A model generated the notes under the pieces. The model had not been told where the DNA came from. It did no database searches and saw only the letters and a list, made by a program, of their open reading frames with translations. The position numbers were made by a program, and so were the translations under genes. This document shows positions 28,799-33,321 of a stretch of DNA of 64,000 bases, piece after piece (position 1 is the first letter of the stretch; the number at the start of each line of letters is the position of its first letter). This stretch comes from Escherichia coli (lineage in GTDB: Bacteria > Pseudomonadota > Gammaproteobacteria > Enterobacterales > Enterobacteriaceae): assembly GCF_001677475.2 (NCBI RefSeq), contig NZ_CP015229.1; one strand, given 5' to 3'.

Positions 28799-29626
28799 AT
28801 GGCTAATCCAACCGTTATTAAGCTACAGGATGGCAATGTCATGCCCCAGTTGGGACTGGGCGTCTGGCAAGCAAGTAATGAGGAAGTAATCACCGCCATT
28901 CAAAAAGCATTAGAAGTGGGTTATCGCTCGATTGATACCGCCGCGGCCTACAAGAACGAAGAAGGTGTCGGCAAAGCCCTGAAAAATGCCTCAGTCAACA
29001 GAGAAGAACTGTTCATCACCACTAAGCTGTGGAACGACGACCACAAGCGCCCCCGCGAAGCCCTGCTCGACAGCCTGAAAAAACTCCAGCTTGATTATAT
29101 CGACCTCTACTTAATGCACTGGCCCGTTCCCGCTATCGACCATTATGTCGAAGCATGGAAAGGCATGATCGAATTGCAAAAAGAGGGATTAATCAAAAGC
29201 ATCGGCGTGTGCAACTTCCAGATCCATCACCTGCAACGCCTGATTGATGAAACTGGCGTGACGCCTGTGATAAACCAGATCGAACTTCATCCGCTGATGC
29301 AACAACGCCAGCTACACGCCTGGAACGCGACACACAAAATCCAGACCGAATCCTGGAGTCCATTAGCGCAAGGAGGAAAAGGCGTTTTCGATCAGAAAGT
29401 CATTCGCGATCTGGCAGATAAATACGGCAAAACTCCGGCGCAGATTGTTATCCGCTGGCATCTGGATAGCGGCCTGGTGGTGATCCCGAAATCGGTCACA
29501 CCTTCACGTATTGCCGAAAACTTTGATGTCTGGGATTTCCGTCTCGACAAAGACGAACTCGGCGAAATTGCAAAACTCGATCAGGGCAAGCGTCTCGGTC
29601 CCGATCCTGACCAGTTCGGCGGCTAA
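28799..29626 (+). CDS. dkgA: 2,5-diketo-D-gluconate reductase A / methylglyoxal reductase, AKR family (275 aa)
   Basis: MANPTVIKLQDGNVMPQLGLGVWQ. Confidence 0.96.
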   Translation: MANPTVIKLQDGNVMPQLGLGVWQASNEEVITAIQKALEVGYRSIDTAAAYKNEEGVGKALKNASVNREELFITTKLWNDDHKRPREALLDSLKKLQLDYIDLYLMHWPVPAIDHYVEAWKGMIELQKEGLIKSIGVCNFQIHHLQRLIDETGVTPVINQIELHPLMQQRQLHAWNATHKIQTESWSPLAQGGKGVFDQKVIRDLADKYGKTPAQIVIRWHLDSGLVVIPKSVTPSRIAENFDVWDFRLDKDELGEIAKLDQGKRLGPDPDQFGG

Positions 29627-29825
29627 CGTGCAAATTCTCCCGGTGGCGGTAATGTTCCGCTACCGGACTTTTCAGAAATCATTTATTCCCCTCGCGTCCC
29701 GCCCGTTGTTACTCTTCCTTGTTCAGGAATGCCAAATATAAGGACATCATCATGCAGAGCCGGAAGCTCTTAAAAGAACAACTCATCTATATCCGGGATA
29801 AACGCAACGGAGAGGTGAAAAACAG

Positions 29826-30752
29826 ATGAAAATAATACTTCTGTTTTTAGCAGCCCTGGCAAGTTTTACCGTACACGCACAGCCCCCCTCACAGACCGTT
29901 GAACAAACAGTCCGGCATATTTATAAGAACTATAAATCAGATGACACTGCCCCTTATTTTGGTGAAACCGGAGAGCGGGCGATAACTTCTGCGCGTATTC
30001 AACAGGCGCTTATCCTGAACGACAATCTTACGCTGCCGGGCAATATTGGCTGGCTGGATTATGATCCGGTTTGTGATTGTCAGGATTTTGGCGATCTGGT
30101 GTTAGAAAGCGTAGCGATAACCCAAACTGACGCCGATCATGCCGATGCCGTTGTGCGCTTTCGTATCTTTAAAGACGATAAAGAAAAGACCACGCAGACA
30201 CTGAAAATGGTGGCGGAAAATGGTCGTTGGGTCATTGACGATATTGTCAGCAATCATGGCAGCGTCTTACAAGCAGTTAATAGCGAGAATGAAAAAACGC
30301 TGGCCGCTTTAGCTTCGTTGCAAAAAGAACAGCCGGAAGCCTTTATTGCCGAACTCTTTGAACATATTGCCGATTATAGCTGGCCGTGGACGTGGGTGGT
30401 TTCCGACTCTTACCGCCAGGCGGTCAATGCCTTCTATAAAACCACCTTCAAGACGGCCAACAATCCCGATGAAGATATGCAAATAGAACGGCAATTTATT
30501 TACGACAATCCGATCTGTTTTGGCGAAGAGTCGCTATTTTCACGCGTTGATGAAATTCGAGTCCTGGAGAAAACCGCCGATTCCGCCCGTATTCATGTTC
30601 GTTTTACGCTGACCAATGGCAACAACGAAGAGCAAGAACTGGTTTTACAGCGGCGCGAAGGCAAGTGGGAAATCGCTGATTTTATCCGCCCGAACAGCGG
30701 CAGCCTACTTAAGCAGATTGAGGCAAAAACCGCCGCCAGATTAAAGCAATGA
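29826..30752 (+). CDS. yqhG: DUF3828 periplasmic protein (308 aa)
   Basis: Signal peptide MKIILLFLAALASFTVHA; K-12 position. Confidence 0.9.
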   Translation: MKIILLFLAALASFTVHAQPPSQTVEQTVRHIYKNYKSDDTAPYFGETGERAITSARIQQALILNDNLTLPGNIGWLDYDPVCDCQDFGDLVLESVAITQTDADHADAVVRFRIFKDDKEKTTQTLKMVAENGRWVIDDIVSNHGSVLQAVNSENEKTLAALASLQKEQPEAFIAELFEHIADYSWPWTWVVSDSYRQAVNAFYKTTFKTANNPDEDMQIERQFIYDNPICFGEESLFSRVDEIRVLEKTADSARIHVRFTLTNGNNEEQELVLQRREGKWEIADFIRPNSGSLLKQIEAKTAARLKQ

Positions 30753-30802: not shown

Positions 30803-31060
30803 ATGAAAACGATTTTCACCGTGGGAGCTGTTGTTCTGGCAACCTACTTGCTCAGCGGCTGCGTCAATGAGCAAAAGGTCAATCCGCTGGCGAGCAATGT
30901 GCAAACATTAAATGCCAAAATCGCCCGGCTTGAGCAGGATATGAAAGCACTACGCCCACAAATCTATGCTGCCAAATCCGAAGCTAACAGAGCCAATACG
31001 CGTCTTGATGCACAGGACTATTTTGATTGCCTGCGCTGCTTGCGTATGTACGCAGAATGA
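30803..31060 (+). CDS. yqhH: Small outer membrane lipoprotein (85 aa)
   Basis: Lipobox LSGC after signal peptide; Lpp-like coiled coil. Confidence 0.88.
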
Positions 31061-31104
31061 TAAAAAATCCCCGGCAGCGTGTCAGTTGCCGGGGATATTT
31101 TTTA
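31061..31104. terminator. Bidirectional rho-independent terminator between convergent yqhH and ygiQ
   Basis: atccccggca...tgccggggat stem flanked by A-run and T-run. Confidence 0.7.
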
Positions 31105-33321
31105 ACGTCCAACCGCCGCTTTAGGGCGTTTCTTCGCACCAGCATTCACCGGACGAGATTGCGTAGACGACGCTTTTTTTGCCGTAGCAGGCGTCTGACG
31201 CTGGGTCGCCATCGGCGTATGTTTAGTCAACGCCGGACGGGTATTGCGATTCTGGCGACGAGCCTCACGCATCTCTTCAATGGTTGGCGCAGGCACTAAG
31301 CAATCGCGACGGCTGCCAATCAGATGCTTTTTGCCCATCGCTTCCAGCGCCTGACGGATTAACGGCCAGTTTGCCGGATCGTGGTAACGCAACAACGCTT
31401 TATGCAAACGACGCTGTTTGTCACCCTTCGGTACAAAGACGTCTTCACTCTTATAACCAATCTTCGCCAGCGGGTTTTTGCCGGTGTAATACATAGTGGT
31501 CGAGTTAGCCAGCGGCGACGGGTAGAAGTTCTGTACCTGGTCGAGGCGGAAGCGGTGCTTTTTCAGCCACAGCGCCAGATTCACCATATCTTCATCGCGC
31601 GTACCGGGGTGTGCCGAGATGAAATACGGGATCAAATACTGCTCTTTACCTGCCTGTTTCGAGTAGGTATCGAACAACTCTTTAAAGCGGTCATAGCTGC
31701 CCATGCCCGGCTTCATCATCTTCGACAACGGCCCTTCTTCGGTATGTTCCGGGGCAATCTTCAGATAACCGCCGACGTGATGGGTCGCCAGCTCTTTGAT
31801 ATAGCGCGGATCTTCCACGGCGATGTCATAACGTACGCCGGAAGCGATCAGGATCTTTTTAATGCCTTTCAGATCACGCGCACGGCGATAGAGGTTGATC
31901 GTCGGTTCGTGGTTAGTGTCCATATGCGGACAAATATCCGGGTAAACACACGACAAGCGGCGGCAGGTCTGTTCAGCGCGTGGCGATTTGCAGCGCAACA
32001 TATACATGTTGGCAGTTGGCCCACCGAGATCGGAAATTACGCCCGTAAAACCTGGAACGGTGTCGCGGATCGCTTCGATCTCATTGATGATCGAATCTTC
32101 CGAACGGCTCTGAATAATGCGCCCTTCATGCTCGGTAATAGAACAGAAAGAACAGCCACCAAAGCAGCCACGCATAATGTTGACCGAGAAACGGATCATT
32201 TCGTAAGCCGGAATACGAGCATTGCCATAGGCCGGATGCGGCACGCGCTTGTACGGCAGCGCAAAAACGCTGTCCATCTCTTCGGTAGAAAGCGGGATAG
32301 CAGGCGGGTTGATCCACACATAGCGGTCGCCATGTTTTTGCATCAATGCGCGGGCGCAGCCTGGGTTAGTTTCGTGGTGCAGAATACGCGAAGCATGGGC
32401 GTACAGCACTTTATCGCCCTTCACTTTCTCGAAAGAAGGCAGCAACACGTAGGTTTTTTCCCATGGTTTCGGGCGCGGCGGCTGCACAGTTACAGCTTTA
32501 GCTTCCTGCTTTTTCGGGGCCACCGGTTTGTTATCCGCGCACGGCAGATCTTCGCCATACGGATGCGGGATTGGGTCGATTTTCCCTGGGGTATCAAGAC
32601 GGGTGGAATCCACACCGCTCCAGCCAGGCAGCGCCTCTTTTACGATAATTGCGGTATTACGCACATCGCGGATTTCACTAATCGGCTCACCCATCGCCAG
32701 ACGATGCGCCACCTCCACCAACGGACGCTCACCGTTACCGAACATCAGCATGTCGGCTTTCGAATCCACCAGCACGGAACGGCGCACGGTATCGGACCAG
32801 TAATCATAATGCGCGGTACGGCGCAGACTAGCCTCAATACCGCCGAGGATCACCGGCACATCTTTCCACGCCTCTTTACAACGCTGGGTATAAACCAGTG
32901 TGGCGCGATCCGGTCGCTTACCCGCGACGTTATCCGGCGTGTAGGCATCGTCATGACGTAAACGGCGATCGGCAGTGTAACGGTTGATCATCGAATCCAT
33001 GTTGCCAGCAGTAACACCAAAAAACAGATTCGGTTTACCCAGACGCATAAAGTCGTCTTTGCTGCTCCAGTCCGGCTGGGCGATGATCCCGACGCGAAAG
33101 CCCTGCGCTTCCAGCATACGACCGCAAATCGCCATCCCAAAGCTTGGGTGATCGACATACGCGTCGCCAGTAACCAAAATGATGTCGCAGCTATCCCAGC
33201 CAAGTTGATCCATCTCTTCACGAGACATCGGCAAAAACGGTGCCGGTCCAAAACAGGCGGCCCAGTACTGCGGCCAGGAGAACAGGTCGCGATCCGGTTG
33301 GATCAGGGAGATAGAGCTCAT
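31102..33321 (-). CDS. ygiQ: UPF0313 radical SAM protein (739 aa)
   Basis: CxxxCxxC radical-SAM cysteine motif (CFGGCSFC); length matches K-12. Confidence 0.93.

Follow-up and report, generated by a model that had tools for sequence, protein, structure and literature searches.

A 25-codon open reading frame upstream of Escherichia coli yqhG as a likely in-frame remnant of a gene retained in relatives

The dkgA–yqhG junction

Why does the spacer between dkgA and yqhG in Escherichia coli contain a 25-codon upstream open reading frame (uORF) with its own Shine–Dalgarno sequence and a stop codon that overlaps the yqhG start? An earlier note on this DNA proposed that the uORF could be a leader peptide coupling yqhG translation to an upstream signal. 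The window analysed here is a stretch of 64,000 nt of E. coli DNA (contig NZ_CP015229.1), in which the gene order is yqhD, dkgA, a 199-nt spacer, yqhG, yqhH and then ygiQ on the opposite strand. The features of the junction are as follows.

29640–29666, + strand: terminator-like hairpin of dkgA (−20.5 kcal/mol, z = −2.6)
29668–29715, + strand: conserved regulatory or promoter block upstream of the uORF, and of geneX (described below) in relatives (E. coli, E. albertii, Salmonella and L027, a further genus)
29740–29744, + strand: Shine–Dalgarno sequence of the uORF, AAGGA, in all probability inherited from geneX (AAGGA-N7-ATG alignment)
29752–29829, + strand: the 25-codon uORF, very probably an in-frame remnant of geneX (sequence and alignments)
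29809–29817, + strand: Shine–Dalgarno sequence of yqhG, GGAGAGGTG, within the uORF and 8 nt 5' of the yqhG ATG
29826–30752, + strand: yqhG, encoding a periplasmic DUF3828 protein of 308 aa (annotation; Pfam PF12883, E = 7e-45)
30803–31060, + strand: yqhH, encoding an LPP-family lipoprotein, the second gene of yqhGH (annotation)

Direct reading of the + strand confirmed the layout that had been described. The ATG at 29752–29754 is followed by 25 sense codons, MQSRKLLKEQLIYIRDKRNGEVKNR, and by TGA at 29827–29829, and the yqhG ATG (29826–29828) shares the tetranucleotide ATGA (29826–29829) with this stop. The segment aaggacatcatc occupies 29740–29751, so that AAGGA lies 7 nt 5' of the uORF ATG; in the ORF listing the frame can be extended upstream to a TTG at 29719, which would give 36 aa. 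The Shine–Dalgarno sequence of yqhG itself is a strong, well spaced 6-nt GAGGTG, and its GAGG core is present in all Escherichia-type yqhG upstream regions.

Bases 29600–29900 show 100% identity to O157:H7 strains and 99.7% to K-12 MG1655, and they were matched in 5,423 of 5,426 complete E. coli genomes. In MG1655 the uORF lies at NC_000913.3 3157576–3157653. No gene is annotated at this position in the MG1655 RefSeq record or in a PGAP-annotated O157:H7 genome; the MG1655 annotation includes validated small proteins. When the 199-nt spacer was shuffled, 5.6% of shuffles gave an ATG-initiated ORF that ended at the ATGA and had 25 codons or more, and 0.46% gave one that also had a Shine–Dalgarno-like 4-mer in place. 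The uORF exceeds this chance expectation because it is homologous to a real gene, as described in the next section.

The downstream protein, YqhG, is related to Tai3 and YbjP, and yqhG has been implicated in the fimbriation and oxidative-stress resistance of uropathogenic E. coli (PMC6727828). In PMC3950696, yqhG and yqhH are listed as a unit, yqhGH.

Homology of the uORF to a gene of relatives

At the dkgA–yqhG junction of relatives there is a gene of 298–300 aa (897–903 nt), which we call geneX. In E. albertii (L007) the order is yqhD-dkgA-geneX-yqhG-...-yqhH-ygiQ, and the same junction was found in L015–17. A more distant relative (L010/L011), with dkgA at 83% nucleotide identity to that of E. 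coli, has dkgA-geneX-yqhG at the same junction; its L010 contig is shorter and reads dkgA-geneX-yqhG-...-yqhH. Pairs of geneX and yqhG also occur in Salmonella and Superficieibacter. The two genes of the pair overlap: L010 has the same ATGA as the window (geneX end at 2043, yqhG start at 2040), E. albertii has TAATG, and the geneX-like and yqhG-like genes of Superficieibacter share 4 nt. No family was assigned to geneX in Pfam or NCBIfam. Its N-terminal domain is a distant relative of the DUF3828 domain of YqhG (21% identity, E = 7e-6), and its product appears to carry an N-terminal signal peptide.

At the dkgA–yqhG junction, geneX was absent from all complete E. coli genomes searched; the only E. 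coli matches to geneX DNA were to a 72%-identical paralog located between yqhH and ygiQ, in 129 genomes. Only four loci were recovered when genome contigs were scanned for YqhG protein, since diverged homologues escape exact peptide patterns. One sequence that had been taken as a junction lacking the uORF, from E. albertii NBRC 107761 (L005), is in fact a second copy of yqhG at a different locus and is therefore uninformative on the dkgA–yqhG junction.

Alignment with geneX divides the uORF into three pieces.

29752–29765, + strand: 5' piece, homologous to the start of geneX (MQSR- versus MQRW- or MRRW-)
29766–29799, + strand: middle 34 nt, without significant similarity to any geneX body
29800–29829, + strand: 3' piece, homologous in frame to the end of geneX, TGA included

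At the 5' end, window positions 29600–29765 align with the upstream region and start of the E. albertii geneX (L007) at 81% identity (109/135; E = 3e-29). It extends from the dkgA stop across the terminator hairpin, the conserved block and the AAGGA-N7-ATG to the first geneX codons, reaching codon 5 of the uORF. The encoded N-terminus is MQSR in the E. coli uORF, MQSW or MRSW in two cryptic Escherichia lineages, and MQRW or MRRW in geneX. The arrangement AAGGA-N7-ATG is invariant in the seven aligned initiation regions (7/7). Three of these belong to the uORF in Escherichia lineages and the other four to geneX in E. albertii, L010 and Salmonella and to the E. coli paralog; the uORF of MOD1-EC7003 has AAGGG in place of AAGGA.

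At the 3' end, the last 30 nt, which comprise nine codons and the ATGA overlap, match the end of geneX in the same frame. The uORF product ends in KRNGEVKNR, compared with KRQDEVKNR or KRQDEVKD in intact geneX products, each followed directly by the stop; over a longer stretch the C-terminal ends read ...IEAQKRQDEVKD in E. albertii geneX, ...IEALKRQDEVKNR in L010 geneX and ...IRDKRNGEVKNR in the uORF. In the DNA, the L010 sequence AAACGC-CAGGAT-GAGGTA-AAAAACAGATGA corresponds, in the same frame, to AAACGC-AACGGA-GAGGTG-AAAAACAGATGA in the window. The difference in length, 903 − 78 = 825 nt (275 codons), is a multiple of 3, and the net deletion is therefore in frame. Local alignment of the middle piece with five geneX bodies was no better than with shuffled sequences (P 0.34–1.0). 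An apparent match of this piece to the tail of the E. coli paralog (KEQLI/REQEI) also aligned no better than shuffles and is not claimed.

Because both ends, the ribosome-binding site and the stop/start overlap belong to geneX, the uORF can be described as geneX minus a net 825 nt. Judged from these alignments, it is almost certainly an evolutionary leftover, what a net in-frame deletion has left of geneX: its homologue in relatives is intact and lies at the syntenic position, and most of the coding sequence of the ancestral intact state has been lost. The direction of change follows from the distribution of the pair. Since geneX-yqhG pairs exist in E. albertii, L010, Salmonella and Superficieibacter, the pair is ancestral and was lost by E. 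coli; since Salmonella and Superficieibacter also have it, it predates Escherichia. The uORF is found in E. coli and in cryptic lineages and the intact gene in E. albertii, which places the deletion after the split from E. albertii and before that between E. coli and the cryptic lineages. The ancestral unit would thus have consisted of a promoter, geneX, yqhG and one or more lipoprotein genes, the stop of geneX overlapping the start of yqhG, and the net loss from geneX would have taken place in the ancestor that E. coli shares with the cryptic Escherichia clades. What would have survived is the promoter region, the ribosome-binding site, the ATG with the first 4–5 codons, and the last nine codons with the TGA; the remaining stub would also contain about 11 codons that match no geneX segment.

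Transcription, proposed translation and possible present role of the stub

The spacer opens with the dkgA hairpin, CCGGTGGCGG-TAATGTT-CCGCTACCGG followed by ACTTTTC, which is conserved in E. albertii and L010; the terminator scan did not call it, and its U-tract is weak. The conserved block that follows contains CTTTTCAGAAATCAT (29668–29682) and TTGTTACTCT (29706–29715). Within the former, TCAGAAAT (29672–29679) is the reverse of the published BglJ–RcsB core wwTTCykA, and it is a candidate BglJ–RcsB site that fits because the yqhG site is described as inverted in PMC3950696. The same paper reports that a promoter in the dkgA–yqhG spacer, demonstrated by a lacZ fusion and 5'-RACE, drives yqhGH, that it is weak without BglJ–RcsB and activated by it, and that BglJ–RcsB sites are centred 57–79 nt upstream of transcription starts (PMC3950696). 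We infer that yqhG transcription starts between about 29720 and 29755, with TACTCT (29710–29715) as a candidate −10 element. A −10 element at TACTCT would place the uORF Shine–Dalgarno sequence within a leader of some 30 nt; one at TATAAG (29737–29742) would begin the RNA almost at the uORF ATG and leave AAGGA outside the transcript. The second assignment was rated unlikely. In Salmonella and the paralog, conservation covers the AAGGA but does not extend to the TATA part, and AAGGA is for this reason favoured as a Shine–Dalgarno sequence inside the transcript. If transcription did start at or beyond 29752, the transcript would lack the uORF Shine–Dalgarno sequence or start codon. In a σ70 scan, no promoter was called on the + strand of the spacer; the Cappable-seq tables list nothing at these coordinates, and a comparison of EDL933 and K-12 transcription starts lists dkgA and ygiQ but not yqhG.

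The explanation that we consider probable is that the remnant is translated and couples to yqhG, and that its peptide is without function. Normally silent, the yqhGH promoter would fire when activated by BglJ–RcsB, and ribosomes would load at the inherited AAGGA-N7-ATG, translate the 25 codons and terminate on the yqhG start, where some would reinitiate. This reinitiation would add to initiation from the strong Shine–Dalgarno sequence of yqhG. The peptide itself would do nothing, and nothing would be sensed. The stub probably retains both the ribosome entry site of geneX and its stop–start coupling to yqhG; this coupling is a reasonable inference because the intact geneX and yqhG overlap in the same way in relatives, and every uORF-bearing haplotype read out has the ATGA overlap of a coupled pair. 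Taken by themselves, the parts of this explanation differ in strength. That the uORF is translated seems somewhat better supported than the contrary, given its initiation region, whereas a measurable benefit of this translation to yqhG expression is a tentative suggestion. Coupling may be dispensable, as yqhG has its own Shine–Dalgarno sequence and yqhG-type genes without the stub occur in the second E. albertii copy (L005) and in L027. In translation and small-protein surveys, the supplements of PIRT-Seq and smORFer have no entry for the uORF, and the main text of Weaver et al. names no protein at the uORF locus (its YqhJ is antisense to yghE); a small-gene study of O157:H7 Sakai applied a 30-aa minimum.

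The stub is present at 95% identity or more in 5,420 of 5,426 complete E. coli genomes and occurs in three divergent Escherichia lineages (MOD1-EC7003, E69 together with L023, and an E4742-like contig), whose dkgA differs from that of the window at 20–35% of synonymous sites. All eight intact haplotypes read out (8/8) retain the ATG, an open frame of 25 codons and the ATGA. Conservation of the reading frame, which the earlier note had put forward as a check, thus holds within Escherichia; a recent in-frame deletion scar would show the same.

This last point leads to the foremost rival, namely that the stub is a silent relic of geneX, either untranslated to any meaningful extent or without effect on yqhG, which persists since the deletion is recent and other constraints act on the surrounding bases (promoter, 5' UTR and yqhG ribosome-binding site). 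For the three divergent lineages, we distributed transitions and transversions at random in the numbers observed; the ORF stayed intact with a probability of 0.69, 0.48 and 0.20, respectively, so that an open frame could survive by chance in any one of them, but the joint chance of keeping the ATG, frame and length in all three is only about 0.07–0.1. This is weak evidence that the open frame has been favoured by selection. Nucleotide conservation can be explained in good part without translation. Relative to the dkgA synonymous rate, divergence is 33–64% in the uORF and about 20–30% in the upstream spacer (6–7% divergence where dkgA synonymous sites diverge by 20–35%), and the middle 34 nt of the uORF differ at 11 of 33 positions in E69, a near-neutral rate. 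The last 26 nt of the uORF double as the yqhG translation-initiation region, its first bases border on the conserved promoter block, and much of the conservation of the uORF and spacer is attributable to this region and to the conserved promoter block. An effect on yqhG is further made less necessary by the strength of the yqhG Shine–Dalgarno sequence and by the stub-less genes in L005 and L027. One natural E. coli isolate tolerates an insertion of IS1 in the uORF, and the uORF is not annotated in MG1655. Against a silent relic stand a ribosome-binding site that belongs to a real gene and has stayed intact in each lineage (as AAGGG in MOD1-EC7003), and a 199-nt spacer without a single indel across the four assembled genome lineages compared. 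On balance a silent relic is possible but doubtful.

A stronger version of the coupling explanation is that selection has retained the mini-ORF as a minimal coupling adaptor. Once geneX was lost, ribosome loading and termination on the yqhG start would still have been needed for the right level of YqhG, so that only a deletion preserving frame, start and stop could have become fixed and would then have been maintained. From the sequence comparisons available, we regard this as unlikely.

That the 25-aa peptide itself acts, like known regulators of 50 aa or fewer, is very improbable. Pairwise dN/dS values for the uORF are below 1 (0.14, 0.15 and 0.47), on just 5–17 substitutions, and E. coli genomes are nearly identical in this sequence, but this near-identity reflects shallow divergence. 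In the randomization described above, conditioned on an open frame, amino-acid differences were not fewer than expected in any of the three lineages (P = 0.26, 0.19 and 0.62). Between two and four residues differ in the other lineages and 11 of 25 in E69. The changes include the radical substitutions R4W, K5E, L11S and R15M, and within E. coli L11P, where I14T and L11F are also found. The peptide would moreover be a chimera of the n-region of a signal peptide and a C-terminal tail, and it has no family match. Judged by these substitutions, the peptide sequence appears not to be conserved and is probably free to vary.

Least probable of all is a regulatory leader peptide whose translation senses amino-acid supply, a small molecule or secretion state and sets yqhG expression: a short 5'-leader ORF with its own Shine–Dalgarno sequence and a stop overlapping the start of the regulated gene would suit it, but no terminator-like site was found in 29752–29900 by the terminator scan, the predicted RNA fold of 29736–29870 is no better than shuffles (z = −0.72), an Rfam scan of 29400–30100 gave only a chance snoRNA match far below threshold, there is no run of identical or regulatory codons, arrest needs a conserved sequence whereas 11 of 25 residues differ in E69 and amino-acid changes are as frequent as under random placement, and descent from geneX already accounts for both ends of the uORF. 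Of the role suggested in the earlier note, the coupling to yqhG thus remains plausible on the strength of the geneX–yqhG overlap in relatives, and the sensing of an upstream signal is left unsupported: there is neither room nor prediction for a terminator or antiterminator, the peptide is variable and yqhG has a strong Shine–Dalgarno sequence of its own.

Significance and comparison with known systems

The uORF is an ordinary case, an in-frame deletion scar that still resembles a gene, and a new instance of a known phenomenon. Its biological stakes are modest. Its origin explains an unannotated feature in a much-studied genome and illustrates that a leader-like uORF with a good Shine–Dalgarno sequence can be merely the two ends of a deleted gene, which calls for caution with catalogues of uORFs and small proteins built solely from sequence or Ribo-seq. 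The promoter and leader of yqhGH would have been built for a three-gene module, geneX-yqhG-lipoprotein, that persists in E. albertii, Salmonella and Superficieibacter. For the design of yqhG reporter fusions, the presence of a start codon 74 nt upstream, which is probably active, should be considered.

The trpB-trpA and trpE-trpD genes of E. coli are translationally coupled pairs with overlapping ATGA stop and start codons. The uORF resembles the upstream member of such a pair in that its stop overlaps the yqhG ATG as ATGA and it has its own Shine–Dalgarno sequence, so that terminating ribosomes could restart; the intact geneX-yqhG pairs of L010 and Superficieibacter have the same layout. Unlike in the trp pairs, the upstream partner here has shrunk to 25 codons and probably encodes no functional protein, and yqhG has a strong Shine–Dalgarno sequence.

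Attenuation and arrest leader peptides include trpL, hisL, thrL, tnaC, secM and mgtL. The uORF shares with these a short ORF with its own ribosome-binding site in an operon leader, but it lacks a codon run, alternative hairpins, a terminator and a conserved arrest motif. Its stop sits on the yqhG start, and there is therefore no decision region for attenuation.

Other parallels are found among the gene remnants that deletions have left in enterobacterial genomes. Like these, the uORF is homologous to a syntenic intact gene and most of the coding sequence is gone, the deletion being shared by all complete E. coli genomes and cryptic-clade sequences examined. Unlike remnants that are truncated or frameshifted, it arose by a net in-frame deletion that spared the initiation region and the native stop, and the remnant is therefore a complete mini-ORF.

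A final comparison is with the short ORFs found by Ribo-RET, which are described as pervasively translated and unselected in E. coli, most of them without a fitness effect (Stringer et al.; bioRxiv 10.1101/2021.07.02.450978). The uORF resembles them in being short and intergenic, and purifying selection on its peptide did not reach significance in the randomization. It differs from them in having a traceable origin in a real gene and a conserved Shine–Dalgarno sequence inherited from it.

Paralogs of geneX and a second copy of yqhG

A full-length geneX paralog of 305 aa is present in 129 of the 5,426 complete E. coli genomes (loci L012-L014, for example), and therefore a minority of E. coli carries the stub, i.e. 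the 25-codon in-frame remnant of geneX that overlaps the yqhG start codon, together with an intact paralog. The paralog shares about 72% nucleotide identity with E. albertii geneX and is inserted between yqhH and ygiQ, where it is accompanied by an ORF of 115-118 aa. Neither the paralog nor this ORF is found in the window, in which yqhH ends at 31060 and ygiQ at 31102. The ygiQ gene of the window (31102-33321, minus strand) is an intact ORF of 739 aa; in O157:H7 TR01, the uORF region of which matches the window at 100%, ygiQ is annotated as a frameshifted pseudogene.

The E. albertii NBRC 107761 locus (L005, 1078-2130) contains a second yqhG copy that is 78% identical, with a CitMHS/Na-sulfate-symporter gene directly 5' of it. 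A matching context is found in Salmonella (L008, 1538-3825), with the order transporter-geneX-yqhG'-LPP; unlike in Salmonella, geneX is absent beside the second E. albertii copy. The sole ORF ending on the ATGA of this copy has eight codons and starts with ATG without a Shine-Dalgarno sequence.

In a relative (L027, 1894-2050), a yqhG-like gene (44% identical) lies 107 nt past dkgA (76% nucleotide identity), and geneX is missing from the junction between the two. The initiation region and signal peptide of this gene (MKSLATWPLL) are similar to those of a Salmonella geneX variant (MKSLVAWSLL). The gene may be a geneX/yqhG chimera that arose by recombination between the paralogous N-terminal domains of both.

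Altered alleles and anomalous records

Near the 3' end of geneX in one E. albertii locus (L007, 2455-2466), a run of A is one base shorter than in other E. albertii, which gives a premature TAG and a product of 286 aa versus 298 aa; this is either a true frameshift or an assembly error. Insertion sequences were observed at two loci: IS1 lies within the uORF, after codon 12, in a single clinical isolate (E. coli GN04592; L021, 1748-2445), and yqhG is broken by ISVsa5 in another isolate (E. coli 571; L022, 1369-2521). A 3.3 kb contig in a record titled Flavobacterium paronense CECT 8460 (L006) consists of dkgA-yqhG DNA of E. coli, in which the uORF is identical; it is almost certainly contamination of that assembly. 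One E. coli TPA assembly has a called protein of 443 aa (P0017) with aldo-keto reductase (DkgA) and DUF3828 (YqhG) domains, which represents either a dkgA-yqhG fusion through deletion or an annotation artefact.

Conserved block upstream of geneX or yqhG

The block CTTTTC(A/G)GAAATCAT (window 29668-29682) is common to E. coli, E. albertii, Salmonella and L027, in which it lies upstream of geneX or yqhG. As the core motif that PMC3950696 gives for BglJ-RcsB occurs in it in reverse, the block probably represents the predicted activator site.
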